Under the pieces are notes generated by a model. It saw only the letters and a list, made by a program, of their open reading frames with translations, was not told the origin of the DNA and searched no databases. A DNA stretch of 52,238 nucleotides from Saprospiraceae bacterium. Lineage in GTDB: Bacteria > Bacteroidota > Bacteroidia > Chitinophagales > Saprospiraceae. Shown here in pieces: positions 9,531 through 48,274 of this stretch (within the stretch, counting starts at the first letter, position 1; every line of letters begins with the position of its first letter). The stretch is taken from the NCBI GenBank assembly GCA_043752765.1, contig JAYUXX010000240.1:1-52238 (forward strand). Reading direction: 5' to 3'. The translations under genes were made by a program, and so were the position numbers.

Positions 9531-9645
9531 TTTATCAGACTAGGAAGTAAAGATTCATCAGGAGAAAGTATAATTTAACTCGTAACAAAGAGATCGGTAG
9601 CCGTTGAATAAATTAATAAGCAGCTAGTCACTAAGTCTAACACAA

Positions 9646-10353: not shown

Positions 10354-10438
10354 AATTTTAACCACTTGGTACCCACTCGTACTAGGTTGGATCTTTAGAT
10401 TGAATAGACCTTTACAGCGATAACAAACCGTTGTAGTA

Positions 10439-10777: not shown

Positions 10778-10884
10778 AAACTATCCGGGGCAAGACTTTA
10801 AAGGCCAAGTAAAATTGATATTACTCCCCTGCATCCACCATATGAATCGGATTTCAATTTAGAATAAAATAAACCTGGAGGACT

Positions 10885-12039
10885 ATGGAATTCATAAACG
10901 AAGGACTTGGTCCTAAAGAAATTATAGAGGGCTTCCATGACTTAGAGGAGCCTAGGAATGGAATGCAGCACTCGAACGACATATCTCCCAACGCTTTTGA
11001 TATTCAAAAAGCTCTACAGAAGGCTCTGATTGATCCCAATGAAGAGAATGAGGTTCTTCCGATGATCTTAAGTATTGGTCAAGTTGCCGTATGCACAATG
11101 GGAAACCTTAGTGTAATTCTTGGAAAGCCCAAGGCAAGAAAATCAGGATTAGCTATTCTATTCCTTGTAGGGTTGCTCAATGGAAACTTAAGTCCGATGA
11201 GCGGATATCTGTTCAAGGGAAAGAAAAGGATTATCTGGTTTGATACCGAGATGAGCAGGCCTCATGCTAAAAAGGGTTATCTCAAAGTTAGGGATATGGC
11301 TACCAATTCAGAATACTACACCTTAAGGAAATATTCAATCCGGAAACATACGGATGTTGAGCGAAGGCAAATGATCCACCAGGTTCTAGTAGAAGAAAAT
11401 CAAGAAAATGACATTGCGTTTTGTGTGATAGATGGCATCAGGGATTTACTGCTTAGCATCAATGACGAGAAAGCTGCTCCTGAAATAGCAAACTGGCTAA
11501 TGCACATTACTGAAGAAAAGGGGTTTCACCTGCTCACAGTGATTCATGAAAACAAACATGATACATCTGCTACAGGGCACTTAGGTAGTGCTATTTCGGC
11601 AAAGGCTGAAACCGTATTCAGGTCAGAGCGAAGAGTTGGCAAAAGCAAAGTAACCCCTCATCTATGCAGGAATGAGGAGTTTATTCCCTTCACTTTTACT
11701 TATGACGAAGTGTCGGGTTTCCCCAAAATTCTAGAGATCGGTGACAATTATACGGACACGAACAATGACCCCCGGAAGGCAATAAACGCAGAAACAATTT
11801 CAGGGACTAAGCACAAGGAAATTATGGAGAGCATTTATGAAGTTCAGTCTGAATACAGTCGGGGAGACCTTGAGAGCCAGGTTCAATTAAGATACCGGGA
11901 GGAAGGCTTCTCAATGGGAATGAATAAGGTTAAGCAGGTAATCTCTTATTGTATCAATCTTAAGCTGATTGAGAAGGATGGAAACGCAGGTTCTAAAGGG
12001 AAATACATTAAATCTCAAGGATTAATTCCTCCTGTTTAA
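10885..12039 (+). CDS. RecA/DnaB-fold P-loop ATPase (AAA_25-like), putative replication helicase/loader
   Basis: Walker-A-like LGKPKARKSGL and Walker-B-like FCVIDGIRDL. It sits between the xis-like gene and the primase. Confidence 0.55.
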   Translation: MEFINEGLGPKEIIEGFHDLEEPRNGMQHSNDISPNAFDIQKALQKALIDPNEENEVLPMILSIGQVAVCTMGNLSVILGKPKARKSGLAILFLVGLLNGNLSPMSGYLFKGKKRIIWFDTEMSRPHAKKGYLKVRDMATNSEYYTLRKYSIRKHTDVERRQMIHQVLVEENQENDIAFCVIDGIRDLLLSINDEKAAPEIANWLMHITEEKGFHLLTVIHENKHDTSATGHLGSAISAKAETVFRSERRVGKSKVTPHLCRNEEFIPFTFTYDEVSGFPKILEIGDNYTDTNNDPRKAINAETISGTKHKEIMESIYEVQSEYSRGDLESQVQLRYREEGFSMGMNKVKQVISYCINLKLIEKDGNAGSKGKYIKSQGLIPPV

Positions 12040-12154
12040 TCCCTCTCGTTTAGTCGTTTACTCGTTTAAGCCCCCTATAAGGGGGGGCTAAACTAAACGA
12101 GATAAACCACAAAACACAACCCGTTTAATTGTCTCGTTTAACCGACTTAAACGA
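12032..12154. repeat. Iteron-like array of TCGTTTA heptamers
   Basis: Direct copies at 12046, 12054 and 12062 (8-bp phasing), at 12134, and variants CTGTTTA at 12032 and CCGTTTA at 12121. Inverted copies TAAACGA at 12094 and 12148. The array surrounds the G/C hairpin CCCCCTATAAGGGGG (12071-12087). Confidence 0.6.
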
Positions 12155-12302
12155 CTCAAACCAGACGAATAAATAAAAAATAGAAAGTAATGTTTTGTAA
12201 GGCTTTTTAGGGGCCTTCCCATAAAAAGTAATGGTTGACTTCATTAATCCTTAGCGCAACTGACCCAAACAAAACCAACCACTGAGAAAAAAATAACAGC
12301 TA

Positions 12303-13727
12303 ATGAACCAGGGAGATTTTCTATACACACTTGAGAAAGGCAGTAAAAAGCATGTATGTCCCTCCTGTTTAAAGAAGAGGCTCGTTAGGTATATCAATAA
12401 GGAAACCGGTGAATATCTTCCTGAGGAGTACGGCCGATGTGATAGAGGAGGGCATTACCACTTAAATCCATATAAGGATGGATTTGCTAAATCAGACCTG
12501 AAGCGGGAGTATAGTAGCCGGGCTTACATTTCGCCTGTCCCTCATGTTGTGGCAAAGCCTCAGACGTACATTCCCCGAGAAGTATTGGAGGCCATCCAGA
12601 AGGATTATGATCAGAATGTATTCATTCAAAATCTCTTACACCGTATTCCTTATCCATTCCCTGAGAAGGATGTTAACAAAGTAATCTCCATCTATAGGCT
12701 AGGTACGGTAACAAGGGGATACTTAACGGGAGCAGTTACCTTCCCTTATTTTGAAACACCTGATAAAATTCAGGCTATCCAAATAGTCAAGTATGGACAC
12801 GACACTAAAAGGTCAGGAATTAATTGGCTTGATTCTTATGTTGCTTGCGAATTAAATAAGATCGGGAAGAAGCCTCCGGTATGGGTTACTGAAAGGGATG
12901 AGCAATCTAAGGTCAATTGTTTTTTTGGTGCTCACCTGGTCAATGAGTTTAAAGCCTCTCCAATCGTTTTAGTTGAGGGACCGAAGAGCGCAATAATAGG
13001 AATGCTCACTTATGGTCTTCCAGATGGGTCCCCGAATGGAAATCCGATATGGTTAGCAACTGGCAGTAGGGATACTTTCTCAATCCGAAGATCACAAATT
13101 TTGAAGGGGAGATTTATAATTCTTATCCCCGACTTATCTCCTGATGGCAGTACTTATAAAAAGTGGTATGATAATGCTGCAATGTTTGGAAAGGAAATGC
13201 CAGGGACTTCATTTTTGATGTACAACCGATTTGAAAAAAGGGCATCAGTAAAGGATAAGGAAGGAAAGGATGATATAGCAGACTTCATTATAAAACAAGA
13301 TTGGAGAGGGCACCGGGGTATGATAGCCGGTATCGGGCAAACCCCAAAAAGAACTATTGAAAAAATAAGCACACAAGTTCTGGAACCTATCAGAAACGGC
13401 CGGGGAATCGGCCAACTTGAAGACCGGGGATTCATTATTGATCAGGACCAAACACCACGATTTAATAAAGCTGATAAGTGGCAACAATCCTATGTCGTGC
13501 ACGGAGCATGGGATAAAGAAATAGCTGAGATGGACCAATTCTTTGAAACTGCTTCATTGCCTGAAGGTCCTTTCAAACTAAATCCTTATACCCCAATAAC
13601 TGAAGCGTCTGGATTTCTAAAGTATAATCTTGCAGTAGCAAAAGAGCAGAATGGAAACCCAACATTTAGGCCGTATTTAATTAGGGTTAAGGAGCTAATG
13701 GAGTATGTCCAAGTATATGCAGAATAA
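12303..13727 (+). CDS. Zinc-finger + Toprim domain protein, putative DNA primase
   Basis: N-terminal CPSCLKKR...GRCDRGGHYH Zn-binding motif. Toprim-like VLVEGPKSAIIG (Glu) and ILIPDLSPDGS (DxD-like). Confidence 0.6.
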   Translation: MNQGDFLYTLEKGSKKHVCPSCLKKRLVRYINKETGEYLPEEYGRCDRGGHYHLNPYKDGFAKSDLKREYSSRAYISPVPHVVAKPQTYIPREVLEAIQKDYDQNVFIQNLLHRIPYPFPEKDVNKVISIYRLGTVTRGYLTGAVTFPYFETPDKIQAIQIVKYGHDTKRSGINWLDSYVACELNKIGKKPPVWVTERDEQSKVNCFFGAHLVNEFKASPIVLVEGPKSAIIGMLTYGLPDGSPNGNPIWLATGSRDTFSIRRSQILKGRFIILIPDLSPDGSTYKKWYDNAAMFGKEMPGTSFLMYNRFEKRASVKDKEGKDDIADFIIKQDWRGHRGMIAGIGQTPKRTIEKISTQVLEPIRNGRGIGQLEDRGFIIDQDQTPRFNKADKWQQSYVVHGAWDKEIAEMDQFFETASLPEGPFKLNPYTPITEASGFLKYNLAVAKEQNGNPTFRPYLIRVKELMEYVQVYAE

Positions 13728-20069: not shown

Positions 20070-20261
20070 TTATAAAGAAAATAGCCTGAGATTCCCCTTT
20101 TGATGAAGTGTATTTGGTAGCTCTTTCCCTGCTCCGTCAAAAACAATAATTAATCCATTCAATACTAAGCTTTGAATAGCTTTAGAGATGATCATGAAGC
20201 ATAGCCCGATCTTCTCCCTAAACTGATTTATGAGAGACCTATAAATCAGGCGAGACATCAA
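20070..20261 (-). pseudogene. Copy A2 of the winged-helix-like gene, C-terminally truncated
   Basis: 20104-20244 matches 49333-49473 at 139/141 nt. The ORF keeps its N-terminus (MMSRLIYRSLINQFREKIGLC...) but ends early at the junction with copy A1. Confidence 0.45.
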
Positions 20262-20359
20262 TCGGCTAGGCGGAAAATTTACGAAGAGCTGATGAGCTGA
20301 ATGAAGCTTTGAAGGATGTGTTTGGGTAATTTGGTATTTTGAGGCGGAAAACTTAAACT

Positions 20360-20821
20360 ATGATAATTATCTTACAGCGAGCTATCCCAATTGTTTTTTG
20401 GGCTGGGTTTACGATATGGTTCTCATTTAAACCATATTTTTTTAATACTGCAACCACTGAAAATACAGGAGAAGCATATGATTATTTGGGTAAGTTTATA
20501 CTTGATGTTATGCCCAATTTATTAGGGTTTACAATTACAGCATTTGCCGTAATTTTAAGTATGAGTGAAGATTTTATAAAAAAATTAATCAAAAGCTCAC
20601 ATTCAATTTTTAATATTAGGACCTTGTTTTTTTTTAGTATATGGACGCAGGCTACAGCTATTTTAATAGCCTTCACTTCTCAATACGGATTACTTTTTGA
20701 TGATACTAAATATTTAGATTTTGGAGTCGGAATTCTATTTTCATTAACCTCAACATGCTTTTTGTCAATATTCCTAATTGCACACAAGCTATTCCTAATT
20801 AGTGGTAGCCTAAATTCTTAG
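20360..20821 (+). CDS. Small integral membrane protein (about 4 TM helices)
   Basis: 153 aa with hydrophobic segments IPIVFWAGFTIWF, LLGFTITAFAVIL, ATAILIAFT and FGVGILFSLTSTCFLSIFLIA. It sits inside a segment that is absent from the paralogous locus at 45.9 kb. Confidence 0.55.
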   Translation: MIIILQRAIPIVFWAGFTIWFSFKPYFFNTATTENTGEAYDYLGKFILDVMPNLLGFTITAFAVILSMSEDFIKKLIKSSHSIFNIRTLFFFSIWTQATAILIAFTSQYGLLFDDTKYLDFGVGILFSLTSTCFLSIFLIAHKLFLISGSLNS

Positions 20822-20835
20822 TTGTATAAAAATTT

Positions 20836-20888
20836 CCCCCGGTCCCAGATAAGTGCGCAGGGCCTATCGGGATGCGTGGAACCGGGAG
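20836..20888. other. GC-rich nested hairpin directly after the membrane-protein gene
   Basis: CCCGGT (20838-20843) pairs with ACCGGG (20881-20886). The inner CCCAGATA pairs with TATCGGG. This GC-rich patch stands out from the AT-rich surroundings and has no T-tract. Confidence 0.4.
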
Positions 20889-21036
20889 AATTGTGTTATA
20901 GGGATTTTAATGACAAACCTGACATTTCTATTCTGTCAGTCCCGTCTCTCATTAATGTTGTATTCCCAAATCAAAAATTAGTATTATAAGAAATTTTCAA
21001 TTAGCACAGCTTTACTTGATAAATCCGATAGCAAAA

Positions 21037-21294
21037 ATGAAGGACTCGATATTACAGCAAATGAAGGCTAACGCCAAGGAATATAAGAACATGGCCATCA
21101 ATGACATGAAAGCTTTAATTAATCGTGGTCATGAACTTAAAAGGAGTGATCAGGAGGCCCTGGATAATGTTGGGATCCTGCGATCACATTACCATTTACC
21201 CAAATCTGATAAGGATGCTTTAGGAGCAGCATCGCTGTACGATATCTATGACGGTGGTGATGATTGGGCGAAACACTTTGACGAAGAAGAATAA
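21037..21294 (+). CDS. Small conserved protein, paralog of 48009-48269
   Basis: MKDSILQQMKANAKEYKNM... against MKNSILQQMKANAKEYKDM.... ATG 21037 is preferred over the track's TTG 21016, because the 21 nt upstream are a relic of the 3' end of the neighbouring gene in the 48-kb copy. Confidence 0.55.
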   Translation: MKDSILQQMKANAKEYKNMAINDMKALINRGHELKRSDQEALDNVGILRSHYHLPKSDKDALGAASLYDIYDGGDDWAKHFDEEE

Positions 21295-21346
21295 GAATTT
21301 GGCTGATATTTGGCATTCCTGTTTTATCAGACTGCATTAGCTAACC

Positions 21347-21772
21347 ATGAATAGAAGAGGCCCTTTCATTATCATAGAGGATGATCGTGAAGATCAGGAG
21401 GTATTAGAGGAAGTTCTTAAGGAGTTCAATGTTAGGAATGCAACTTTATTTTTCCAACCGGTGAGACAGCTCTCGAATACATAACCAATAGCACTATAGA
21501 GCCATTTATTATTATCTCAGATATTAATATGCCTAAACTCGACGGTATGAAATTGAGAGAACAGGTGTATCATAATGACTACCTCAGGCTAAAGTGTATT
21601 CTATATCTATTTTTTTACAACAAACTCAAATCAAAGCCTTGTAGAAGAAGCGTACTCAAAATCAATTCAAGGGTTTTTTGTAAAACCATTTTCTTATCCT
21701 GACATCAAAGCTACCGTAGCAAGTAGTATAGATTATTGGCAACGATGTGAATCTCCAAATTATACTAAATAA
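21347..21772 (+). pseudogene. CheY-like response-regulator receiver domain gene with two frameshifts
   Basis: Three frame segments read MNRRGPFIIIEDDREDQEVLEEVLKEF.., ..GETALEYITNSTIEPFIIISDINMPKLDGMKLREQV.. and ..FFTTNSNQSLVEEAYSKSIQGFFVKPFSYPDI... The shifts fall at T-runs near 21446 and 21612. First and last segments share a frame. Confidence 0.7.
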
Positions 21773-21807
21773 AAGCCTTCTATGGTTTGATTTAACCTCT
21801 ATACTGC

Positions 21808-21978
21808 TTATCCTCTCTTCTCCCTCTTAATATCCTTAGGCTTCATCGCGGATCCGCACTTTATACATGCGGGATATTTCAAAAGAGCATTTTCAAATGA
21901 GATAGCTTCAACCTTAACAGCTCTGGAGCCAGAAGTCCGGCAAGCAAAGGATGAGCACTGAAGGGTAAAGGTTTCCAT
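21808..21978 (-). CDS. 56-aa four-Cys (zinc-ribbon-like) protein, copy 1
   Basis: Below the track cutoff. METFTLQCSSFACRTSGSRAVKVEAISFENALLKYPACIKCGSAMKPKDIKREKRG. The 5' 79 nt match the inverted copy at 46031-46109 at 77/79. It lies 26 nt downstream of the SPASM gene. Confidence 0.5.
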   Translation of the reverse strand: METFTLQCSSFACRTSGSRAVKVEAISFENALLKYPACIKCGSAMKPKDIKREKRG

Positions 21979-22004
21979 TTTGCCCAAAGGTATTAGGATT
22001 CTAG

Positions 22005-23108
22005 CTAGACCTTCAAATTTTCCATCTCATAAAATCTAATCGCCTCCATTTTAAGAGGATTATTTAACCAATCACTCCACTCACCTATATAAGGGTTATA
22101 CCCGCATTTCAATGGTTTACTTAAAATGTCTTTTGGATCTTCAACGAAAGCTCTGCAGTCTGTACAAATGAATCTAAACTCACAATCGCGGCATACATGA
22201 ATCAAATTTTTATTTAATGTCCAGTATTGCTTAAAGTTTGGCTTCGCAATTGCTTCCTCAATAGTTGTACTATTAATATTGCCATATGAATCTACCATGG
22301 AGGGGCAGTTTTTAATATTGCCATCAATATCTATAGAAACTTTTCTATTTAAACACGAGTTATAGTTAATCGATTCTGTGTAAGTTTCAAGTGATGGATT
22401 AAAGAACCCCTCAATTTTCCCACAATCTAGATGAGAAGAAAATGAATTAGATGAAAGAAAAACATCTTTATTAAGATCTGATGTCACTATTCTTTGGTTC
22501 TCTGGAGCATTATAGAATATAGCTGAAAAACATTTATCAGAATTTAAAATCTGATCTACAATGGGATTAATATGAGATTCAACGTAAGGCAAATAAATAC
22601 TGAATCCAGTAAGTGATTGATTTTCCGCTAATATCATAAGCTTCTGAATGTAAATAAGTTCGTTTATTTTAAAGACTCTAAAATTATAAAAAGGAATTTT
22701 AAACCCATTTATTGACTTAACTAATTCATCTAAATTTTGTTCGTTATTAATATCTATTATGCAATTAGTGATTGAGTGCGGATTATCCCAATTATCTGAC
22801 ATATTAGGAAATAAAGATGGATCAGGAACAAAAGCACATAATTCATTGTCTAATAGAAATCTTAAATATTGTTTTGCTAATTGCCGTTGAGAAGAATATT
22901 CTTTTAATATTTGAATTACAGTTTTGCCTAAGCAAGATTCAACAAATAAGTTTATTGCGTTTGGTAAATGAAATATGTCTGTTCTCTGCAGATCGATAAT
23001 TGCGGAGAATTTGTGACCGGAGATAATTTTTACATTCTCGAAAAGTATAAATTTGTTAGATCTCAATTTTAATAATTTTACATAAAGGTTTCTCTGGTTT
23101 TTTTCCAA
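22005..23108 (-). CDS. SPASM-domain peptide maturase-like protein lacking the radical-SAM CxxxCxxC motif
   Basis: The C-terminus has a full 7-Cys SPASM pattern: CLNRKVSIDIDGNIKNC ... CRDCEFRFICTDC ... KCGYNP. No CxxxCxxC occurs anywhere in the 367 aa. TTG start. Adjacent to the ATP-grasp gene. Confidence 0.75.
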   Translation of the reverse strand: MEKNQRNLYVKLLKLRSNKFILFENVKIISGHKFSAIIDLQRTDIFHLPNAINLFVESCLGKTVIQILKEYSSQRQLAKQYLRFLLDNELCAFVPDPSLFPNMSDNWDNPHSITNCIIDINNEQNLDELVKSINGFKIPFYNFRVFKINELIYIQKLMILAENQSLTGFSIYLPYVESHINPIVDQILNSDKCFSAIFYNAPENQRIVTSDLNKDVFLSSNSFSSHLDCGKIEGFFNPSLETYTESINYNSCLNRKVSIDIDGNIKNCPSMVDSYGNINSTTIEEAIAKPNFKQYWTLNKNLIHVCRDCEFRFICTDCRAFVEDPKDILSKPLKCGYNPYIGEWSDWLNNPLKMEAIRFYEMENLKV

Positions 23109-23182
23109 AGTAAAATTTACCTTCTTGTAAAGAAGGTTTAATGTTCTTTACAACTTTATAATTAAATAAAAGTGGAGACAAC

Positions 23183-24166
23183 TTAGTTATCTTGTGATTG
23201 GATCTCTTCATAAATTTGAAATGCTATATATTTATCAATATAGTAATTGCAGTTGTAAGACAACCATTCATAATGACCTGAGTGGTTAACTTCTAAGAAA
23301 TAATAATCTCCAACCGTGCTCACAAGGATATCAATTGAACCGGTGTCAAAGTTAGACAAGCGACTAAACTCTAAAATTGACGCTTCAATTGTTGCAGGAA
23401 TTTTGAATGGTACACATCTATTAGGTTTGGCACGGTCATAATTTCGAAAATCAATCTGAGTTTTAGGATTGCTTTGCGAAAAAATGGCCATAGAATACAC
23501 TAAATTCCTGTAATAGAAAACTCTTAACTCGTATTGCTTAGGTATATATTCTTGAAATAAACAAGGAAAGAATTCATTTTCTAAGTTATTAATTAGTTCT
23601 GCTGTTAGTAATTGGGTTCCAACTGGAGAAAATGTTACATTTCTTTTTGTCGTTAGAGGCTTATGATTTCGTATCGGCTTTAATATTGTACCTTTCGGGT
23701 TGCCAGCCATAAAATCAACTAGTGACGATTTTGAGGTAGTGATCAAAGTCCTTGGGATCATCAATCCTGAATTTTTAGCAGTCAAAAGGTTAGTGAGTTT
23801 GTTGGTGTTTTTCTCTGTTAGTATTGAGCCATAATGTTTCTTTGAGGTTAATTGATTCTCCCAAAATTCAAAAATTGTCTCTTCTTCTTTTCTTAGCCAA
23901 TCATAAGATTCATGCTGAAATTGATCAAATGAAGCTTTTAAAAGTGATTTGAATTTTCCTCTTCTGTAATAATAAAAAGTGACTTCTGTCTCTGGAAGAC
24001 CTCCTAACTGATGTGAATGAGATTCATTATCTATAAGAAAATGTAATGGATAAAGACAATCATTTTCATCTAACGTTTTTATTTGAAGAGAAGGTTCTAT
24101 TGATTTTAACCATTCTAATACATTAGTAGCAGAATTATCGTAAGCTTCAACAAAAGCGATTACCAT
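23183..24166 (-). CDS. ATP-grasp family RiPP maturase (graspetide-type ligase)
   Basis: 327 aa, the typical size for RiPP ATP-grasp ligases. It sits between the SPASM gene and the precursor, 2 nt after the upstream gene's stop. The family call rests on context and overall resemblance. Confidence 0.7.
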   Translation of the reverse strand: MVIAFVEAYDNSATNVLEWLKSIEPSLQIKTLDENDCLYPLHFLIDNESHSHQLGGLPETEVTFYYYRRGKFKSLLKASFDQFQHESYDWLRKEEETIFEFWENQLTSKKHYGSILTEKNTNKLTNLLTAKNSGLMIPRTLITTSKSSLVDFMAGNPKGTILKPIRNHKPLTTKRNVTFSPVGTQLLTAELINNLENEFFPCLFQEYIPKQYELRVFYYRNLVYSMAIFSQSNPKTQIDFRNYDRAKPNRCVPFKIPATIEASILEFSRLSNFDTGSIDILVSTVGDYYFLEVNHSGHYEWLSYNCNYYIDKYIAFQIYEEIQSQDN

Positions 24167-24168
24167 AT

Positions 24169-25095
24169 TTAATCTAATGATATTTTACTTGCACTCATGT
24201 ACTGCTCTAAAGGTTCCAGCCCGACAGATTTTCGTCTATCGTCAATGCTATTTAAGTCCGAAATAGGATAGAAAACATTTTTATCATCTTTCTTAACATA
24301 TTGAGTGCCATAAATTTGAGGAATATCCTTACTCATGTTAATTCTGTCAATTAAATATGCTAAATATTTTGGATTCAAATCCTTTGCATCTACCGCTTGT
24401 TGAACGTAGGGTAAATATTTTTGTTGATATGATGGAGGAGCATGTTGAATTACGAGCCAGGCAACTTCTGAAAGGGTTCCCACTTTAGATCGACCAGGAT
24501 ATGTACCTAATTTTTTAATTATCGTAGCTACTTTAATTTGATTAATACTGTCTTTACTTGCTTGAAGTGGAGTTAATTCTCGCTTACCCCTTCCATTATC
24601 ATCTACTATTATTTCTCGAAATTTTGTTATGAGATCTGGATCATAACTTGAGTTCAAAGATTGGCATATACTATCAAAGTAAGGTTTCTCATTATGTAAG
24701 TAAAAATAACCCACGGGTGCGCGAGAAAAATATTTTGCATTGAAGGGAGCCTCAAAAATATATGAATAAAAATCACATATAGCATATGGACTATTTTCAT
24801 ATGCATCTGCCCAAATTTCTTTTATTATACTATCTGTTGCGAATAGCGCAATATTTGCTATCAGAAATCGCCAGTAAGCATGTTCTTTAGCAGTCCAAAT
24901 GATAGTAGGGTCTTCAATAATAGTTTTAGTTTCATTATAAGCATCTTTATAATACGTAAAATCTTGAGGAAGCTTTTCCATAAAGCTGTATTGCTTAATA
25001 TAGGTAGCGTTATTCACTTGTGCCAATAAAGTAGTACGAGGGATCAATAAGAGTAAGCAAGCTATTAGTTTTAACGAATTAATTAGAACGATCAT
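24169..25095 (-). CDS. Exported protein of unknown function, paralog A
   Basis: Signal peptide LIACLLLLIPRTTLLAQ. Shares YPGRSxVG...VAWxVIQ...PxYLAxxxDRI...PQIYGTQ...YPIxD...R...GL with 25118-26011. Confidence 0.55.
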   Translation of the reverse strand: MIVLINSLKLIACLLLLIPRTTLLAQVNNATYIKQYSFMEKLPQDFTYYKDAYNETKTIIEDPTIIWTAKEHAYWRFLIANIALFATDSIIKEIWADAYENSPYAICDFYSYIFEAPFNAKYFSRAPVGYFYLHNEKPYFDSICQSLNSSYDPDLITKFREIIVDDNGRGKRELTPLQASKDSINQIKVATIIKKLGTYPGRSKVGTLSEVAWLVIQHAPPSYQQKYLPYVQQAVDAKDLNPKYLAYLIDRINMSKDIPQIYGTQYVKKDDKNVFYPISDLNSIDDRRKSVGLEPLEQYMSASKISLD

Positions 25096-25117
25096 ATCTA
25101 AATATTGAATTCAAGAA

Positions 25118-26011
25118 TTACTTATTAATTTTTTCACTTTTGATTAAATCGCCCAAACTGGTGTTGCTCGTATCTAATATTCCTAGACCCATTTGCGCTC
25201 TTAATTCATTAACTTTTTTAATATCTTTTATCGGATAAACTTCTCTTTCTTTTTCCGAGGTTTTGGTCTGTGTACCGTAGATCTGGGGACGATTGTTTAG
25301 TATTTCAATTCTATCCAAACTGGCAGCTAAGTATCGCGGATGAAGATCACCGCATTTTACGGCTAGTTTTAATAAATCAATATACTTGCTTAAATAGGGT
25401 AAATCACCAGATTGTATCACAGACCATGCAACTGATTCCAGGTTAATTCCAACAACTGAGCGTCCAGGATACCGGATTTGGAATTTCATTATTTCATCCA
25501 ACTCTTTCTGTTTGCCAATTAGAGCATTTTCATTCGTTCTAAACTGGCTGATTTTAGTTATTAAAACTGAATCATATTTTTCATACAGGCTTGAACATTT
25601 TGTCTTAAAAAAAGTCGTTTCCCGCATTAATACACAATGAATTGGGAATGGAATGCCCTTATTATACTCCACATTGTCGATCCTAGCAAATTCCATTTCA
25701 ACATTTTGACATGAAGAATGAGGATCAACTTCATATCCCTGTAACCAAATTTCTTTAAGTTGATTAAGCGGAAAAAATAATTTTACAGCTGAACTGAAAT
25801 AATTAGTGTACAGGACTGATTTATCCCACCAAGCTAATTGTTCGTGTTGAAGTGAATTTTTCGAAAGATTGTACAGTTTAAGCTCTAAATTATAATCTAT
25901 ACCTAAAGAATCTATAATGGGGTAATGAGGTATTGTGTCAAGGGATGTGCAATTGGATTTTGCTGACCCGGTAAAAATTAATAATAGTAGTGTTAACTTA
26001 ATCAGATGCAT
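25118..26011 (-). CDS. Exported protein of unknown function, paralog B
   Basis: Signal peptide LTLLLLIFTGSAKS. Same conserved C-terminal module as 24169-25095. Confidence 0.55.
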   Translation of the reverse strand: MHLIKLTLLLLIFTGSAKSNCTSLDTIPHYPIIDSLGIDYNLELKLYNLSKNSLQHEQLAWWDKSVLYTNYFSSAVKLFFPLNQLKEIWLQGYEVDPHSSCQNVEMEFARIDNVEYNKGIPFPIHCVLMRETTFFKTKCSSLYEKYDSVLITKISQFRTNENALIGKQKELDEIMKFQIRYPGRSVVGINLESVAWSVIQSGDLPYLSKYIDLLKLAVKCGDLHPRYLAASLDRIEILNNRPQIYGTQTKTSEKEREVYPIKDIKKVNELRAQMGLGILDTSNTSLGDLIKSEKINK

Positions 26012-26094
26012 AAATTTTGAATTGGGGAGATTGAAATTTAAAATTACTAATAGTAATATTTTAACTATTCAATCTCCCAAGTTTAAGACTTTAA

Positions 26095-26307
26095 TTACAT
26101 ATTCCCATCATTTTCCCTATCCATATATGGAATATGACCACCACCATCGAAATATCTTGTCGATACTCTATTGTCTAGAATATCATCATACCCCGATGGA
26201 TGATTTGGGTCACTAGAAGTGAAGGTTGTATCCCTTGTACCACCAGCAACTGTAAAAAGCTGTTCATTCTTAAGTTTAACAGCAGTAAATTCCTCTAATT
26301 TTAACAT
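26095..26307 (-). CDS. RiPP precursor peptide with double-glycine leader
   Basis: MLKLEEFTAVKLKNEQLFTVAGG | TRDTTFTSSDPNHPSGYDDILDNRVSTRYFDGGGHIPYMDRENDGNM. The Bacteroidota-type GG leader is followed by a 47-aa core with 9 Ser/Thr, 9 Asp/Glu, no Lys and no Cys. Confidence 0.7.
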   Translation of the reverse strand: MLKLEEFTAVKLKNEQLFTVAGGTRDTTFTSSDPNHPSGYDDILDNRVSTRYFDGGGHIPYMDRENDGNM

Positions 26308-26613
26308 AAAATCTTCAATTTTATTGTGATCTCCTCTTTTTTGGCTTCGGAGATGGCCATATAGCTATTGGTGTAAACTTACGTATGAGCACTGCCAATA
26401 GTGGCAGTTTGTTTTATATTTATTGATATATTTTGTTATGTTTTTCTTTTAAAGGGCAATAGATTGATATTGAGGCAATTAATTAAAATAGTTAGTTTAG
26501 TCTAGAAAGAGACAATCTTATCCTTATTTTCTTTTCTACTTCTCACAGGAATAGTATTAATTTGTAGGTAACACCACCAGTCTTGCCCTGAGTACTTGAC
26601 TCGGATTTATACT

Positions 26614-28800
26614 ATGAGAAGGTTTCCTTTTTTTCCACAATTTGATACAATGGATTGCGGCCCTGCCTGCATCCAAATGATTGCAGCTTATTATGGTAGA
26701 AAATATACCTTACAAGAACTAAGAAACAGAAGTTATATAGATAAGGAAGGTGTTTCTTTAAAAGGCCTTAGTGAAGCTTCCGAAAGTATCGGATTTAGGT
26801 CAATGGCGGTCAAGATTCCTTTTGTAGATACAGATAATGCTCCTTCACTAAGGACTTCTCCCTTGCCAATAGTTGCGCATTGGAATCAAAATCATTTTGT
26901 TGTAGTTTATAAAATTGGAAAAAGACATGTTTGGATTGGAGATCCAGCATCGGGGATTCTTAAGTTAAGTATTGACACTTTTAAAAGTCATTGGCTTAGT
27001 GATTTTGATAAGGGAATTGTTCTTCTTCTAGAAACTACTGCGAAATTTAATTCTGAGGAGGTTCCAGAAGGAAAAGGTAATTCCATTCAGTTCTTTCGCT
27101 CATACATTCAGCCCCATAGTAAACTCATTGCTCAGGTGGTTCTGGGTATGATCATTACCGCAATACTTCAGCTTATATTTCCATTTTTAACTCAATCTAT
27201 AGTTGACATAGGTATTGACAATCAGGATATAAATTTTATTTATTTAATTCTAATTGGTCAGATATTTATTTTTTTAGGACAAATTTCAGTTAAAGTGGTG
27301 CAGAGCTGGATATTACTGCATGTCAGCACCAGAATAAATGTTCAATTAATTTCTGATTTTTTACAGAAATTGATGCGCCTGCCTTTAGGATTCTTTGATA
27401 CACGCAATACAGGTGATTTGCTCCAGCGTATAAGTGATCATAAAAGGATAGAAAACTTTTTAACACAATCCTCTTTATCGATACTTTTCTCTTCAATAAA
27501 TATTATCGTTTTTGGAGCAGTTCTATTTATTTATTCCACAACTATATTCCTAGTTTTTTTAGTAAGCTCATTGCTTTATATTGGATGGATTGCTTTTTTC
27601 CTAAAAAGGAGACGGGAAATTGACTATTTAGCATTCAAGCAATTGTCTGATAACCAAAGTGCAATTATTGAGATTATTCAAGGAATGCAAGAAATTAAGC
27701 TGCAAGGCAGTAGCTTCAAACGTAGATGGGCCTGGGCATATATTCAAGCAAGATTGTTTAGGATTCAAATGAAATCCCTTAAAATTTCTCAATATCAAGA
27801 TATTGGCGGAAACTCAATTAATCAGCTTAAAGATATATTCATAACATTTATAGCAGCTAAGTCTGTGATTGATGGATCTATGTCACTAGGCATGATGCTG
27901 GCGGTGCAATATATGATTGGGCAATTAAACGGTCCCTTACAACAACTCATCAATTTTATTAGAAGCGCTCAAGACGCCAGGATAAGTTATGAACGAATAA
28001 GTGAAATACACGAGCATAAAGATGAACAAGAAACGAATGGCAATAAAGTAAAATTTATACCAGATGGCGATATAACACTTAATGGATTGTGTTTTCAATA
28101 TACCCCTGTTTCTCCATTAGTCCTTCAGGATATTACATTGAAAATACCAAGAGGTAAGATTACTGCCATAGTTGGAAGTAGTGGTAGTGGCAAGACGACA
28201 TTGATGAAATTATTACTTGGTTTCTATCCTACTTCAAAAGGTTTTATTAAAGTGGGCAATACTGCATTGGAAGCAATAGATAAAAATATCTGGAGAGCTG
28301 ATTGTGGTGTAGTAATGCAAGAGGGCTACGTATTTTCAGATACCATAGCAGAAAATATAGCCGAAAGTGATGACAAGGTAGATATAGACAAATTATTTTC
28401 TAGTTGTGAAACTGCAAACATCAAGGAATTTATTGAATCAATGCCTTTATCATATAATACAATGATTGGAGCAAAAGGAAATGGAGTTAGTCAAGGTCAA
28501 AGACAGCGCCTGCTTATAGCAAGAGCCGTGTATAAAAACCCGCATTTCTTATTTCTAGATGAGGCTACTAATGCACTTGACGCTATAAATGAAGGAATAA
28601 TCATTGAAAACTTTAACAAATATTTTACTGGACGTACCGTTATTATAATAGCGCATCGTCTTAGTACAGTAAGACACGCTGATCAAATTGTTGTTTTAGA
28701 AAAAGGATTAGTGGTTGAAGTGGGAAGTCATGCCGATCTGATCTATTCTAAAGGTAAGTATCATACTTTAATAAGTAACCAGCTAGAACTTAGCATATAG
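26614..28800 (+). CDS. Peptidase C39-domain ABC transporter (PCAT, bacteriocin/RiPP exporter)
   Basis: C39 motif FPQFDTMDCGPACIQMIAAYYG. Six-TM region. Walker A GSSGSGKTT, signature VSQGQRQR, Walker B LFLDEAT. ATG 26614 preferred over the track's TTG 26596. Confidence 0.9.
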   Translation: MRRFPFFPQFDTMDCGPACIQMIAAYYGRKYTLQELRNRSYIDKEGVSLKGLSEASESIGFRSMAVKIPFVDTDNAPSLRTSPLPIVAHWNQNHFVVVYKIGKRHVWIGDPASGILKLSIDTFKSHWLSDFDKGIVLLLETTAKFNSEEVPEGKGNSIQFFRSYIQPHSKLIAQVVLGMIITAILQLIFPFLTQSIVDIGIDNQDINFIYLILIGQIFIFLGQISVKVVQSWILLHVSTRINVQLISDFLQKLMRLPLGFFDTRNTGDLLQRISDHKRIENFLTQSSLSILFSSINIIVFGAVLFIYSTTIFLVFLVSSLLYIGWIAFFLKRRREIDYLAFKQLSDNQSAIIEIIQGMQEIKLQGSSFKRRWAWAYIQARLFRIQMKSLKISQYQDIGGNSINQLKDIFITFIAAKSVIDGSMSLGMMLAVQYMIGQLNGPLQQLINFIRSAQDARISYERISEIHEHKDEQETNGNKVKFIPDGDITLNGLCFQYTPVSPLVLQDITLKIPRGKITAIVGSSGSGKTTLMKLLLGFYPTSKGFIKVGNTALEAIDKNIWRADCGVVMQEGYVFSDTIAENIAESDDKVDIDKLFSSCETANIKEFIESMPLSYNTMIGAKGNGVSQGQRQRLLIARAVYKNPHFLFLDEATNALDAINEGIIIENFNKYFTGRTVIIIAHRLSTVRHADQIVVLEKGLVVEVGSHADLIYSKGKYHTLISNQLELSI

Positions 28801-28804
28801 AATT

Positions 28805-30115
28805 ATGTCAATCACGGCCAGCGATTATAAAGAAAATAGCATTCGATTTCAACGAGATCGACTGATGGACCTAATTGGTAATCCGCCGGGTTGGATCCTA
28901 CATTCTGGCATGATTATAATTAGTATAATGCTATGCATACTTGTTTTTCTTGCGTGGTTCATTCGGTTTCCTGATGTTATTTCAGCCCCTGTAGTGATTT
29001 ATTCATCAAGTCCTCCAATTAAAATATATGCCAATCATTCCGGAACAGTTGATAGCATTTATGTAGAAAGTGGTGATACAGTCGTACCAAATCAAATTTT
29101 AATGTATATCGCCAATCCTGCTTTGTTAGAGGATGTGAGTAATTGGTCAGAGTGGGTGGAACAACTTATTAGCTCTACTGATCCCACCGAATTCATAATG
29201 GCCCCGCAAATTAATTTGAAGCTAGGCCATCTTAATAATTTATATACAGGAATTAATCAAAAATATTTTGAATGGCTCAGGATATTGCAGGACCGAACAC
29301 CTGGAGAAAAAATTAGAATTCACCAAGCTGAAATTGAGAATATAAACCAGCTGGTTCAATCTATAGATAAACAAGTCTCCATTTTTGATAATGAATTGAG
29401 TTTGCAGAAAAAAAATGTCATTAGAGACGAAAAACTTTTAAGAGAAGGTGTTTTGAGCGAGGTTGATTTTGAAAAGTCTCAGTATACTTTTTTAGTTTCT
29501 ACACGTCAAAAAGAGTCCTTTACAGCTCTAACCCTTAATCATATGATTACCATAGAGCAATTAGAACATCAAATTATTGAGGCAAAACTTTTACATACAA
29601 ATTTAATAAATCAGGCTTTTATTGCTTTGCAGCAGATGGCTGTTGAAGCTAAGGCATCTATTGTTCAATGGCGACAAGAATTTGTATTAGAATCAAAAAT
29701 TGATGGGCAAGTTATTATTCCTTCAGTTTTTAAAAAACATAATTATATAACTGAAGGGGATAATTTATTTAGTATTATTCCAATTAGTAGTGCTGTATCT
29801 TCTATAGCTCGTGCACGTCTCTCCAATGAAGGACTTGGGAAGGTTAAGAAAGGGGACAGGGTTTTAATCTCCCTGGATGCTTGGCCTTCTAAGCAGTACG
29901 GTAAAATACTAACCCAGGTTGATCTAATTTCTCCAATTTCACTCCCCAACGAAGAACATCAAATTTTTGAATTGATAATGGAAGTCAGTGTACCTCCTGT
30001 AACAACAATGCAAATTTCGCTGCCACTAAAACCAGAAGAATCAGGGAATGGTCGCATAATTACAGAAAATAGACGCATTCTAAGTCGTATACTTCAACAA
30101 TTTATTCAATCTTAA
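28805..30115 (+). CDS. HlyD-family membrane fusion/secretion protein
   Basis: N-terminal TM helix, a long coiled-coil middle and a beta-barrel C-terminus. It starts 4 nt after the ABC gene. Confidence 0.8.
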   Translation: MSITASDYKENSIRFQRDRLMDLIGNPPGWILHSGMIIISIMLCILVFLAWFIRFPDVISAPVVIYSSSPPIKIYANHSGTVDSIYVESGDTVVPNQILMYIANPALLEDVSNWSEWVEQLISSTDPTEFIMAPQINLKLGHLNNLYTGINQKYFEWLRILQDRTPGEKIRIHQAEIENINQLVQSIDKQVSIFDNELSLQKKNVIRDEKLLREGVLSEVDFEKSQYTFLVSTRQKESFTALTLNHMITIEQLEHQIIEAKLLHTNLINQAFIALQQMAVEAKASIVQWRQEFVLESKIDGQVIIPSVFKKHNYITEGDNLFSIIPISSAVSSIARARLSNEGLGKVKKGDRVLISLDAWPSKQYGKILTQVDLISPISLPNEEHQIFELIMEVSVPPVTTMQISLPLKPEESGNGRIITENRRILSRILQQFIQS

Positions 30116-30126: not shown

Positions 30127-30450
30127 ATGGGAATCATCGAACATGCTCAATTATTGGAGCAGATTCACAATTTAATAAAAAGCAAGAGCACAGGAACTCC
30201 GAGCTCCTTTGCTTCACATCTTAATATTTCAGAAAGAACACTTTATCGTATCATCGAAGAACTGCGTGATCGTGGTGCAGACATTGCATTCAACACGGCT
30301 CGAATGACCTATTATTATAGAAATGATGTCGAAATTAAGCTACAAGTCCGGATTGGAGACTCAGGTTCAAAGGTTAAAGGAGGCCAAGCTAGCATGTTTT
30401 TTGAAAAGGCTTTCAACTACGATTGTTTCTTTCTACCCTTTAATGATTGA
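30127..30450 (+). CDS. Small HTH_11/DeoR-N-type DNA-binding protein
   Basis: FASHLNISERTLYRIIEELRDRGADI matches the HTH_11 helix-turn-helix. No WYL or other C-terminal domain. It starts 11 nt after the hlyD-family stop. Confidence 0.6.
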   Translation: MGIIEHAQLLEQIHNLIKSKSTGTPSSFASHLNISERTLYRIIEELRDRGADIAFNTARMTYYYRNDVEIKLQVRIGDSGSKVKGGQASMFFEKAFNYDCFFLPFND

Positions 30451-30514: not shown

Positions 30515-30814
30515 ATGGAGACTTTCAAAGTTATCTGCCTTTCAGAGAGAGATTGTTGTAGTGGAAGGCCCGTTGCACAGATTCAAATACTAGAAAATAT
30601 GGTAAAATTTAAAGATCGGACAGAACGGACTTTAAGCTTTAGAAAAGAAACGTGGGAAGAAATTAAAGCAAAAATTATTGTCAGATCTCAATTACCTATT
30701 GAAATAACTAACTTTTTAACTTTTACGGCTTTAGAAAAGGACCAGATAATCAATTATATTAAAGACGAAACCAATATTGATGATAGATTGATATTTTATA
30801 GTAATAAATTTTGA
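30515..30814 (+). CDS. Hypothetical 99-aa protein coupled to the dGTPase gene
   Basis: Its TGA stop (30812-30814) is separated by 1 nt from the ATG of the next gene. No recognisable motif. Confidence 0.5.
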   Translation: METFKVICLSERDCCSGRPVAQIQILENMVKFKDRTERTLSFRKETWEEIKAKIIVRSQLPIEITNFLTFTALEKDQIINYIKDETNIDDRLIFYSNKF

Positions 30815-30815
30815 C

Positions 30816-32300
30816 ATGGATATTGAAAATGAGAGACAAACATGGGGACGTCTGCTTTCTTGTAAAAGGCTAGAAGAGTTAATATCCAGTCAAACAGAAC
30901 TTCATTGTCGTAATGAGTCTAGAAATCCATTTGAACGTGATTGCGATCGAATAACATATTCATATCCATTTAGAAGACTCCAAGATAAGACACAAGTTAT
31001 CCCGCTTCCTGTGACTGATTTTGTTCACACACGCCTAACTCATACTTTAGAGGTTACCACCGTTGGCAGATCTCTAGGACGACTGCTTGAGACTTGGCTT
31101 TTCAATAGAAAGATTATTGAGACGATAAATATTGGAGATATACCAGCAATTCTTAATGCTTCGTGTCTGGCTCATGACATAGGTAATCCACCCTTCGGCC
31201 ATTCTGGTGAAGCCTCAATATCTGAGTATTTTAAATTTGGAAATGGGAAGGATTATTTAATAGAGGAATACGGTGGTGAGGTTGTCGAAATTGGAGAGAA
31301 TGAAAAAGGCCAACCAATTCTTGATTATAAATATAAAGATGATCTCTCGAGAATAAAATGTACTGATCTCAGATATTTTGAAGGTAATGCTAACGGGCTA
31401 AGAATTCTGACAAAGCATAATGATCAAGGATTAAATTTAACAGCAGCGACACTTGGAACTTTTTCCAAATATCCAAGAACATCTTTTATTCCAGGCGAAA
31501 CTGCCTACGAGCGGTGGGATAAGAGTAGAGCTAGTCAAAAGAAATATGGTGTTTTTTACTCAGAACGTGATCAGTTTGAATTAATTGCAAAAGAATTAGG
31601 TCTAATAGAACTTTTTAATGATGGCCAAGCCTTGGCATATGCTCGACACCCTTTAGCTTTCTTATTAGAAGCCGCCGACGATATATGTTATCGTATTATT
31701 GATTTAGAGGATGGCATAAGAATCGGTCGAATTCCTTTTAAAGAAGCTGAATTGATCATGCTACAAATAACTATAATGGATGACAGATATTCTAAAAAGC
31801 AGTACGAAAACCTGAAAGATGATAAAATTAAAATTGCATATTTGAGATCAAAGAGTATAAATTATTTGGTGTTTCAGTGTTTTGAAGTCTTTATTAAAAA
31901 TTACACTGCCATCATAGAAGGCAAATTTGATATGGATCTCCTTAGTCAAATTAAAGATGCAAATGCATATAAAGCTACAAAAGAGATAAGGGAATTAGTT
32001 AAAAAATATATTTATAAATGGGATGAGGTTCTTGCGCTTGAGGCAACGGGATTTGAAGTTCTCTCAGGTTTAATTGGTGAATATATAGAGGCTTCCAATT
32101 TATGTATATCATGTCCTGAGCTTGTTATGAGCTATAGAGCAAAAAAAATATACGACTTATTACCCGATCAATATTGCCATTTAGATGATGACGAAGAACG
32201 CTATTCAAGGTATTTGAAAGTTGCGGATTATACTTCTGGAATGTCTGATAGCTTTGCTCTCAATATTTTCCGTAAAATTAAAGGCATTCAAATCAAGTAG
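30816..32300 (+). CDS. dGTP triphosphohydrolase (Dgt) family HD-domain protein
   Basis: FERDCDRITYSYPFRRLQDKTQV, HTRLTHTLEVTTVGRSLG and LAHDIGNPPFGHSGE are hallmark dGTPase/HD motifs. Confidence 0.85.
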   Translation: MDIENERQTWGRLLSCKRLEELISSQTELHCRNESRNPFERDCDRITYSYPFRRLQDKTQVIPLPVTDFVHTRLTHTLEVTTVGRSLGRLLETWLFNRKIIETINIGDIPAILNASCLAHDIGNPPFGHSGEASISEYFKFGNGKDYLIEEYGGEVVEIGENEKGQPILDYKYKDDLSRIKCTDLRYFEGNANGLRILTKHNDQGLNLTAATLGTFSKYPRTSFIPGETAYERWDKSRASQKKYGVFYSERDQFELIAKELGLIELFNDGQALAYARHPLAFLLEAADDICYRIIDLEDGIRIGRIPFKEAELIMLQITIMDDRYSKKQYENLKDDKIKIAYLRSKSINYLVFQCFEVFIKNYTAIIEGKFDMDLLSQIKDANAYKATKEIRELVKKYIYKWDEVLALEATGFEVLSGLIGEYIEASNLCISCPELVMSYRAKKIYDLLPDQYCHLDDDEERYSRYLKVADYTSGMSDSFALNIFRKIKGIQIK

Positions 32301-39363: not shown

Positions 39364-40089
39364 TTATTTTTTCTTTCTCAGTGATTCGCCTTTCAATTCT
39401 ATCCGGTGTGCTTTAGCTGTTAAACGATCAAGGATAGCATCTGCCAGTGTGGGTTCATTTATAAACTCATGCCACTTTGCAACTGGAAGCTGAGATGTAA
39501 TGATGATTGACTTTCTTGCATACCGATCCTCGAGGATTTGCAGTAGAACCAATTTGATTTGTTGATCGAGAGGCTGTAGACCAAAGTCATCCAGAATGAT
39601 CAAGGGTGTGCGCTCCCAATGATTCAACTGCTTCAAGTATGTTCCATCCAGTTTTGACAATGTAACTTTTTCAATAAAGCGATTCATGTTAAAATACAAC
39701 GTCCGATGTCCTTGCATACATGCTTGATATGCCAATGCACAAGCCAGATAACTTTTACCGCATCCTGTTGGACCTGTGATCAGGATAGGCTCTGCTTGTA
39801 TTATGTAGCGTCCTTCAAGCAGAGAAGCAAACTGTTGTTTGGTTAAGTTTCTTCCAGAAGAACATTCCACATTTTCAGGATGTGCTGCGAGTCTTAACTT
39901 GGCAAGCTTGAGGTAATAAGTCATTCGCTCATTACTTCTGTTGAGCAGCTCTGCCTGAGTCATACTGGCAATCAAGTCATGAGCGTCTAATTGTTGATGC
40001 AAGGGTAATTCCAATTGGGATTGATAAAAACCAGACATACCCAGGAGTCTAAGTTGTTGCAATTGTTCAAGTGTTTGTGTTGAGTTCAT
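39364..40089 (-). CDS. istB: IS21-family helper ATPase IstB
   Basis: Walker A GPTGCGKSYLA, Walker B LIILDDFG. 241 aa, downstream of istA. Confidence 0.92.
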   Translation of the reverse strand: MNSTQTLEQLQQLRLLGMSGFYQSQLELPLHQQLDAHDLIASMTQAELLNRSNERMTYYLKLAKLRLAAHPENVECSSGRNLTKQQFASLLEGRYIIQAEPILITGPTGCGKSYLACALAYQACMQGHRTLYFNMNRFIEKVTLSKLDGTYLKQLNHWERTPLIILDDFGLQPLDQQIKLVLLQILEDRYARKSIIITSQLPVAKWHEFINEPTLADAILDRLTAKAHRIELKGESLRKKK

Positions 40090-40112
40090 ACCTATATTGA
40101 TTTTGTGGTTGG

Positions 40113-46206: not shown

Positions 46207-46234
46207 TATTATTATCGCTTGAAGAGGAATAAAT

Positions 46235-47185: not shown

Positions 47186-47269
47186 ATAGTTATTGCTAAC
47201 AGATGGCAACTAAATAAGAAGTACAATGCAACTGGACTAGATAATCATATTATAAATAATAGAGCAAAA

Positions 47270-47470: not shown

Positions 47471-47501
47471 TTTCTTAGCGTGAGTGAAGTCTTGGCTTTT
47501 A

Positions 47502-48269: not shown

Positions 48270-48274
48270 TTTTG

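Follow-up and report, generated by a model that had tools for sequence, protein, structure and literature searches.

We analyzed a putative locus for a peptide made on ribosomes and modified after translation (RiPP) on contig JAYUXX010000240.1 of a Saprospiraceae bacterium (assembly GCA_043752765.1), the whole 52,238-nucleotide stretch of which is referred to here as the window. Nine genes, encoding a precursor peptide, two DUF6624 paralogs (B and A), an ATP-grasp ligase, a small putative LPL-family protein, a SPASM protein, a Peptidase-C39/ABC transporter (PCAT), an HlyD-family adaptor and an HTH_11 protein, were identified on divergent strands (Table 1), and together they very probably constitute a graspetide cluster of the grasp-with-SPASM class. 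Every open reading frame (ORF) named in a first-pass annotation of this DNA was found at its coordinates, but the gene list given there omitted the LPL-family (23056-23211) and HTH_11 (30127-30450) genes. Searches against the curated models of NCBIfam and Pfam, in which bit scores were judged against the trusted cutoff of each model, matched the enzyme ORFs with E-values ranging from 1e-59 to 1e-135.

Table 1. Features of the cluster and of its surroundings in the window
Feature	Position	Strand	Support or remark
Tyrosine integrase	8376-9530	+	
Cys4 ORF, 59 aa (TTG start) or 56 aa (ATG start), four Cys	21808-21987	-	zinc-ribbon-like
SPASM protein, GwsS-like, 367 aa from first TTG	22005-23108	-	TIGR04193
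Small protein, putative LPL family, 51 aa	23056-23211	-	position and motifs; overlaps both neighbors
ATP-grasp peptide ligase, GwsG-like, 327 aa	23183-24166	-	TIGR04192 top match
DUF6624 paralog A, 308 aa, hydrophobic N-terminus	24169-25095	-	Pfam DUF6624 61.9 bits (cutoff 27)
DUF6624 paralog B, 297 aa, hydrophobic N-terminus	25118-26011	-	Pfam DUF6624 23.2 bits (under cutoff 27)
Precursor, 70 aa	26095-26307	-	ORF; 23-aa double-glycine (GG) leader and 47-aa core
Divergent intergenic region	26308-26595	.	between precursor operon and exporter operon
PCAT, 734 aa	26596-28800	+	Pfam
HlyD-family periplasmic adaptor, 436 aa	28805-30115	+	Pfam HlyD_3 37.2 bits
HTH_11 DNA-binding protein, 107 aa	30127-30450	+	Pfam HTH_11 28.3 bits (cutoff 25)
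dGTPase-type HD phosphohydrolase	30816-32300	+	PADLOC dGTPase 209.9 bits; abutting 99-aa ORF precedes
SIR2-APAZ-pAgo fusion, 1062 aa	32773-35961	-	PADLOC pAgo model 1387 bits
DrmD-like protein	within 39364-41654	-	83 bits; adjoins Mu-type transposase/rve ORF
Mu-like transposase/rve ORF	40113-41654	-	
SoFic (Fic-domain) defense protein	44413-45510	-	369 bits

The ATP-grasp gene is followed immediately, on the same strand, by the SPASM gene, with a gap of 75 nt when the longest ORFs are considered, and the products of both genes point to the grasp-with-SPASM pairing that the first-pass annotation had named. The SPASM protein passed the TIGR04193 model with 278.8 bits (cutoff 175; E = 7.2e-83) over model positions 2-341 of 342. 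TIGR04192 was the top match of the ATP-grasp protein, which aligned with model positions 4-315 of 318 (E = 2.4e-59) and obtained 201.3 bits, under the trusted cutoff of 230 and twice the score of the runner-up family (MvdD, 102 bits), so that the ORF does score with RiPP ATP-grasp models, as had been expected of it. Its homologs in the PDB are MdnC (5ig9, E = 1.2e-19), AMdnB (7m4s, 3.9e-16), CdnC (7mgv, 8.4e-15) and MdnB (5ig8, 4.7e-14), and it shares 53% identity with its ortholog in L007, a related locus from a Saprospiraceae metagenome-assembled genome (MAG). By these matches, the enzyme is predicted to be a divergent TIGR04192 member.

The small ORF between these two genes reaches 29 nt into the 3' end of the ATP-grasp gene, also covers the beginning of the SPASM ORF, and has homologs at the same position in four related loci (L001, L002, L003 and L007). 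It carries PLLF and KPLCKI as its versions of the shared LPL motifs, PL(L/T)(F/Y) at the N-terminus and (Y/E)KP(I/L)(S/C)KI at the C-terminus, and its putative assignment to the LPL family rests on position and motifs. The true start of the SPASM gene is probably the TTG at 23066, giving 353 aa, because the gene would then overlap the LPL stop codon by 11 nt, an arrangement also seen in L001 and L002. Residue 20 of the SPASM protein is the first one aligned by NCBIfam, in agreement with this start.

Searches with the SPASM family returned 3422 database relatives at E <= 1e-5, with the closest non-self sequence at 56% identity, and a scan of one genome per species identified at least 590 genomes encoding a SPASM relative. 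Among the loci listed in the species scan, 80 of 80 were from Bacteroidota, the closest being that of the Saprospiraceae MAG. Across 85 Bacteroidota loci we identified 82 adjacent ATP-grasp and SPASM pairs, in that order, with gaps of 72-267 nt, and in 76 of these pairs the gap contains a small ORF with a K-P-I-S-K-like motif at its end. The gene order precursor, DUF6624, DUF6624, ATP-grasp, small ORF and SPASM is common to the window, L007 and a metagenome contig (L002). In the closest NCBI relative (L001, 5075-9765), a DDE_3 transposase is found between the ATP-grasp gene and the small ORF, and the C-terminus of DUF6624 is joined in frame to an ACR_tran-like ORF, reflecting either an assembly chimera or a deletion.

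The precursor consists of the leader MLKLEEFTAVKLKNEQLFTVAGG followed by a core of 47 residues that includes nine Ser/Thr, nine Asp/Glu, no Lys and no Cys; both the GG leader and the core composition read as the first-pass annotation had described them. A hidden Markov model (HMM) of the leaders of 47 distinct precursors from related loci matched the peptide with E = 1.5e-8, and its identification goes beyond chance because this was the sole ORF in the window to be matched. The precursor models of Pfam and NCBIfam (TIGR04139, TIGR04149 and PF14406) gave no match at E <= 0.01, and the peptide therefore represents a new precursor family. A word-indexed homolog search returned one relative (P0122, 63% identity), and an exhaustive HMMER profile search three further small ones (P0183, P0185 and P0187), with the long low-complexity proteins found in the latter being discarded as false positives. 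With four relatives, the family is rare, and all those with contigs long enough adjoin the same cluster genes. The conservation of the precursor beside these enzymes, the absence of which would have spoken against the first-pass reading, is seen in L002 and L007, and beside the ABC, HlyD and HTH genes in L008 and L009.

In the resulting five-member family, the core residues T27, T30, G39, D41, T50, N66 and D67 are invariant and aromatic residues are conserved at F/W29, Y52 and Y/W61. The invariance of T27/T30, T50, D41 and D67 suggests at least two Thr-Asp ester rings, and a core without Lys would allow only omega-ester macrolactones, with no lactam possible. Cores without Cys occur in 9 of the 47 related precursors, and for this reason the role of the SPASM protein cannot depend on Cys. 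As a separate observation on related cores, an EF-hand-like loop of 12 residues, D-x-[DNS]-x-[DNS]-G-x-h-x-x-x-[DE], is present in 14 of the 47 distinct sequences (e.g. DTNGNGRMDPGE; carriers in L014, L020, L028, L037, L038, L039, L041, L047, L050, L055, L057 and L089), against a mean of 0.03 and a maximum of 1 in 500 shuffles. The loop is absent from the window's own precursor core, and no paper in the literature searched joins 'graspetide' with 'EF-hand'.

On the plus strand, PCAT scored above the cutoffs of Peptidase_C39 (119.6 bits), ABC_membrane (123.9) and ABC_tran (102.7), and the catalytic Cys motif of the C39 domain, DCGPAC, can be read in its sequence; its top NCBIfam matches were bacteriocin and NHLP exporters, every one under cutoff. 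The adaptor matched TIGR01843 with 72.1 bits, also under cutoff, and HlyD_3; the C39-ABC/HlyD exporter of the first-pass annotation was thereby confirmed. HlyD and ABC genes are found together in 46 related loci. The HTH_11 protein, 48% identical to its L007 ortholog (E = 6e-32), has homologs in 23 related loci, with ABC-HlyD-HTH-precursor as the usual order, and is probably the cluster regulator. The exporter-HTH module of the window is inverted with respect to the order in L007-L010 and hence diverges from the precursor operon. A stem-loop scan of the region between the two operons identified a perfect palindrome, ACTGCCA-ATAG-TGGCAGT, at 26391-26408, some 85-100 nt upstream of the precursor start, which could be a candidate operator for the HTH_11 protein. 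The palindrome adjoins a TAAGTTTA element that resembles the Bacteroidota -7 box. A sigma-70 promoter scan, which does not cover Bacteroidota promoters, was uninformative (42 sites versus 42.4 expected), and an Rfam scan of the whole window yielded no family at gathering score.

Eight Cys residues of the SPASM protein (C229, C252, C268, C306, C309, C315, C318 and C335) are invariant in 109 relatives. They follow the pattern CX10GX4C...CX2CX5CX2C...C (C252-x10-G-x4-C268; C306-x2-C309-x5-C315-x2-C318; C335), with one additional upstream Cys (C229), and would provide enough ligands for two auxiliary [4Fe-4S] clusters. The CxxxCxxC motif, in turn, is present in none of the 109 relatives, and no Cx2-7CxxC variant occurs in the first 230 residues, in agreement with the first-pass description of a SPASM-only protein with no radical S-adenosylmethionine (SAM) core. 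In the absence of a CxxxCxxC cluster, the protein therefore performs no radical SAM chemistry through a 5'-deoxyadenosyl radical, and it is not to be classed as a radical SAM enzyme.

The AlphaFold2 (AF2) model of the SPASM protein (predicted local distance difference test, pLDDT, of 92.8) begins with four strands and three helices (residues 19-87), continues with a short domain of alpha/beta type (~130 residues, 91-218) and then reaches the SPASM region. Foldseek searches with this model returned SuiB and CteB as the sole matches at E <= 1e-3 (E = 1e-4), and residues ~19-87 resemble the isolated RiPP-recognition-element (RRE) proteins TbiB1 (5v1v_A; prob 1.00, TMt 0.66) and lasso B1 (6jx3_B; prob 0.99, TMt 0.65). 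These residues are accordingly modeled as a predicted N-terminal RRE fold. A SPASM-family profile found no sequence-level match to any PDB chain, and a limited literature search returned no description of an RRE in this SPASM family. Judging by the model, the protein may derive from a radical SAM maturase, the RRE and SPASM domains having been retained while the SAM cluster disappeared.

The two DUF6624 paralogs are 31% identical (E = 4e-38). The near-invariant residues of the family (D166, D182, Q217-H218, D250-R251, Y262-G-T-Q265 and R288) include conserved polar positions that resemble a putative active site. His218 is kept in 58 of 60 aligned DUF6624 sequences, with Ser instead in paralog B, and the sequences of B-type orthologs in L002, L005 and L007 have likewise lost the conserved His. 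The AF2 model of paralog A (pLDDT 91.8) is all-alpha with a small hairpin; Foldseek searches against the PDB and BFVD found no relative for it (best E 0.35-0.5, template modeling (TM) score <= 0.23), and a DUF6624-family profile matched nothing meaningful among PDB sequences. A DUF6624 gene lies directly upstream of the ATP-grasp gene in 39 of the 73 related pairs with enough upstream sequence, and two copies are present in only 6 of the 73. Separately, L005 (7093-10891) and L006 (270-4068) each contain three consecutive DUF6624 genes, one of them OmpA-fused, with neither ATP-grasp nor SPASM genes found inside 8 kb, an 'orphan' layout that recalls orphan immunity genes.

This architecture has been known bioinformatically since 2009-2011 and in detail since 2022, DUF6624-like and LPL accessories included. 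Makarova et al. (2022; PMC8939145) described 190 Bacteroidetes-specific loci with 'branch 5' ATP-grasps that encode a TIGR04193 SPASM protein, hypervariable GG-leader precursors and C39-ABC and HlyD proteins, together with a small 'LPL family' protein invariably located directly upstream of the SPASM gene and, in almost all loci, a secreted protein or lipoprotein ('cluster 23') with conserved His and Arg. The family analyzed here is the equivalent of branch 5. Going by what was published on cluster 23 (secreted, with a conserved His and a conserved Arg), DUF6624 is probably the same family. The first-pass annotation had set the two exported paralogs outside the pairing; both are DUF6624 proteins that fit the description of the published accessory, and they belong to the known system instead of being an addition to it. 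Carter et al. (2026; PMC13097080) reported that a SPASM protein always accompanies RODEO group 14, and the fit of the window to that group is solely through this defining co-occurrence. The gene names gwsG and gwsS have been used in a 2026 preprint for genes in Porphyromonas integrative and conjugative elements (ICEs). The present copy is a divergent subclade of an already catalogued architecture and not a new kind of system; what is new here is a SPASM protein with no radical-SAM motif and with a predicted RRE fold, a predicted DUF6624 fold with no match in PDB or BFVD, and a rare precursor family. The literature searched, with subscription journals outside the search, reports no product or enzyme activity of the grasp-with-SPASM class, in keeping with the earlier remark that no characterized product was known.

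The window cluster shares with grasp-with-SPASM loci (TIGR04192/TIGR04193) the co-oriented ATP-grasp/SPASM pair with a small, putatively LPL-type ORF in between, an upstream secreted accessory, a GG-leader precursor, C39-ABC and HlyD genes, and a Bacteroidota host. It differs in the distance of its SPASM protein from the best relative (56% identity) and of its ATP-grasp protein from the model (under cutoff), in having two DUF6624 paralogs instead of one, in the inversion of the exporter-HTH module with respect to L007-L010, and in a Cys-free precursor that fits no existing precursor model. A homologous ATP-grasp macrocyclase and a core rich in Thr/Ser and Asp/Glu are also found in the microviridin and chryseoviridin systems (MdnA with MdnB/MdnC; CdnA with CdnC). 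The host of chryseoviridin, like that of the window cluster, belongs to the Bacteroidota. Unlike the window, microviridin clusters lack SPASM, LPL and DUF6624 partners, and the window core, which has no Lys, would form no lactam, in contrast to microviridin. The window leader also lacks the PFFARFL-type motif, as read from its sequence and in line with a remark in PMC8939145.

The maturases SuiB, CteB, SkfB and PqqE (with PqqD) resemble the window SPASM protein in their N-terminal RRE-like domain, in the complete set of Cys in a SPASM domain at the C-terminus and in their adjoining RiPP precursor. In contrast to these RRE-radical SAM-SPASM enzymes, the SPASM family of the window lacks CxxxCxxC (109 relatives) and its central alpha/beta domain is shortened. 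A further likeness, one of concept, is found in the partner-protein-dependent graspetide synthetases (rosaritide MirB/MirC; PMC13097080), in that an ATP-grasp enzyme strictly co-occurs with, and possibly depends on, an adjoining non-ligase partner. The rosaritide partner is a PpiC-type chaperone, whereas the window counterpart would be a predicted Fe-S SPASM/RRE protein and a ~50-aa peptide.

The Cys4 ORF downstream of the SPASM gene, which had been listed in the operon, was rejected as a cluster member: jackhmmer searches found no homolog in 90 related loci, and L001 and L002 carry unrelated genes downstream of SPASM. This ORF belongs to an inverted repeat of 127 nt (21857-21983 / 46031-46157), of which it makes up one arm. 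Its 56-aa paralog (46036-46206, plus strand), ~24 kb away and identical in the first 25 residues, immediately precedes a RES-domain ORF of 316 aa (46235-47185, plus strand), with which it may form a toxin-antitoxin-like pair; the copy beside the RiPP cluster has no RES-domain partner. The cluster boundary is placed at about 22005 because the repeat similarity starts just past the SPASM stop codon. At the opposite end, a 99-aa ORF (orf99, 30515-30814) and the dGTPase-type gene directly follow the HTH gene of the cluster (30515-32300), and both were dismissed as members, jackhmmer searches with the 99-aa ORF having brought up no homolog among the related loci.

The GC content of the locus is 0.30-0.34, compared with 0.38-0.43 in the first 8 kb of the window, and repeated modules at 20070-21990 and 45900-49480 flank the 22-46 kb segment. 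These modules share a 163-nt direct repeat with 95% identity (20080-20242 / 49311-49473), a 270-nt inverted repeat (21021-21290 / 48016-48285) that encodes paralogous ORFs of 92 and 86 aa, and several shorter direct repeats, suggesting duplicated element backbones or a past inversion. The SIR2-APAZ-pAgo fusion, a short prokaryotic Argonaute defense gene, is located ~2.3 kb from the cluster end. The integrase, transposase, defense genes and repeats listed here mark the cluster as cargo on an island that is mobile or recombining, and this low-GC island is rich in defense genes. Its location echoes the ICE location reported for Porphyromonas. Further upstream, at 8376-13727 (plus strand), AAA_25 and DUF6371/Zn-ribbon/DUF6965 ORFs come after the integrase where GC content falls from ~0.42 to ~0.35, a layout suggestive of the beginning of an integrative element; a tRNA scan, run in search of an integration site, found no tRNA gene in the window.

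From homology, we infer the steps of leader recognition, ligation, SPASM function, export and DUF6624 action as follows. The 70-aa precursor would be produced from the minus-strand operon, and its leader (M-x-K-L-x-x-F-x-x-x-K-L...GG) would be bound by the N-terminal RRE of the SPASM protein, a step in which the LPL-family protein would probably take part. The ATP-grasp ligase would then activate Asp/Glu side chains with ATP and esterify them to Thr/Ser hydroxyls, generating omega-ester macrolactones. The SPASM protein would most likely serve the ligase as a scaffold with two [4Fe-4S] clusters or as a partner subunit, and not as a thioether-forming enzyme, because it has no CxxxCxxC cluster for a 5'-deoxyadenosyl radical. 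Cleavage after Gly-Gly by the C39 domain would be followed by export of the core through ABC/HlyD, and the two secreted DUF6624 proteins, one with and one without the conserved His, would act in the periplasm in self-protection or post-export tailoring. The HTH_11 protein would control the divergent operons.

The simplest explanation of the modeled SPASM protein, and one to which we give nearly even chances, is that of a leader-binding Fe-S scaffold and partner of the ligase. It could instead be a true second tailoring enzyme that performs redox chemistry through two auxiliary [4Fe-4S] clusters, either with no SAM involved or aided by a radical-SAM partner whose gene lies elsewhere, and that introduces a modification beyond the lactones, such as a C-C or C-O crosslink at F/W29, Y52 or Y/W61. 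The invariance of the eight cluster-ligating Cys in 109 relatives implies that the clusters matter, the order of RRE, alpha/beta and SPASM domains resembles that of the catalytic maturases SuiB and CteB, the five members of the precursor family have conserved aromatic positions, and a modifying role has been assumed in the literature (PMC8939145). Yet the lack of CxxxCxxC in all 109 relatives and of Cx2-7CxxC in the first 230 residues, the size of the middle alpha/beta domain (only ~130 residues), the absence of a radical-SAM gene from the cluster in the NCBIfam and Pfam scans, and the hypervariability of the cores, 9 of 47 of which are Cys-free, make a tailoring SPASM enzyme unlikely. For DUF6624, the evidence makes us lean, at somewhat short of even confidence, toward a periplasmic self-protection role, with tailoring as the alternative. 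Periplasmic or extracellular trimming, hydrolysis or crosslinking, with paralog A as the catalytic and paralog B as the non-catalytic partner, would account for the active-site appearance of the conserved D, D, QH, DR, YGTQ and R residues and for the location of the pair between the precursor and ligase genes, and both recent surveys have proposed an enzymatic role (PMC8939145 and PMC13097080). However, export through ABC/HlyD may bypass the periplasm, no fold relative indicates any chemistry, and sets with no ATP-grasp or SPASM gene (L005/L006) and extra copies apart from the core genes (L087) are typical of immunity genes; we consider a tailoring function somewhat less probable. A more far-reaching proposal, about which we are doubtful, combines an ex-radical SAM maturase and the ~50-aa LPL protein into an RRE/Fe-S subunit needed by the ligase, with DUF6624 as a new periplasmic immunity or tailoring family working as an active/inactive pair.

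The low GC content (0.30-0.34), the flanking repeated modules, the integrase and the transposase could also indicate a decaying, non-functional remnant on a mobile island with no product, and the relatives L001 and L010 are visibly broken, by insertion sequence integration and gene fragmentation. In the window, however, the nine genes are intact and full-length and retain the catalytic Cys of C39, all eight Cys of the SPASM protein and the geometry with which the LPL gene overlaps its neighbors, which renders decay very improbable. A complete biosynthetic cluster of the Bacteroidota grasp-with-SPASM type is highly probable. Several observations weigh against the assignment and mechanism favored here. 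The ATP-grasp score of 201.3 bits is under the TIGR04192 trusted cutoff of 230, and an LPL HMM built from distant members ranks 23056-23211 first in the window with a non-significant E-value (0.32). The RRE call combines a predicted structure with local Foldseek matches (E of about 0.02-0.08, prob 0.99-1.0), while the global TM to SuiB and CteB is low (0.35-0.37). No outer-membrane channel gene adjoins the cluster, and the orphan DUF6624 sets of L005 and L006 show that a function outside the system is possible. No experiment on a class member was found in the literature, and the crosslinks, the SPASM role and the DUF6624 role are all deduced.

At least 590 Bacteroidota species genomes carry grasp-with-SPASM clusters for which we found no product or activity reported, and the window copy, compact with its nine genes and a single Cys-free precursor, makes a good test case. 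The question it poses is what a SPASM protein does without a radical-SAM cluster and without a Cys-containing substrate. If a ligase dependent on an RRE/Fe-S subunit derived from a former radical SAM maturase were to prove real, it would represent a new kind of partner-dependent graspetide synthetase, and the predicted RRE offers a concrete hypothesis in this regard, according to which the SPASM protein would bind the leader and act in partnership with the ligase.

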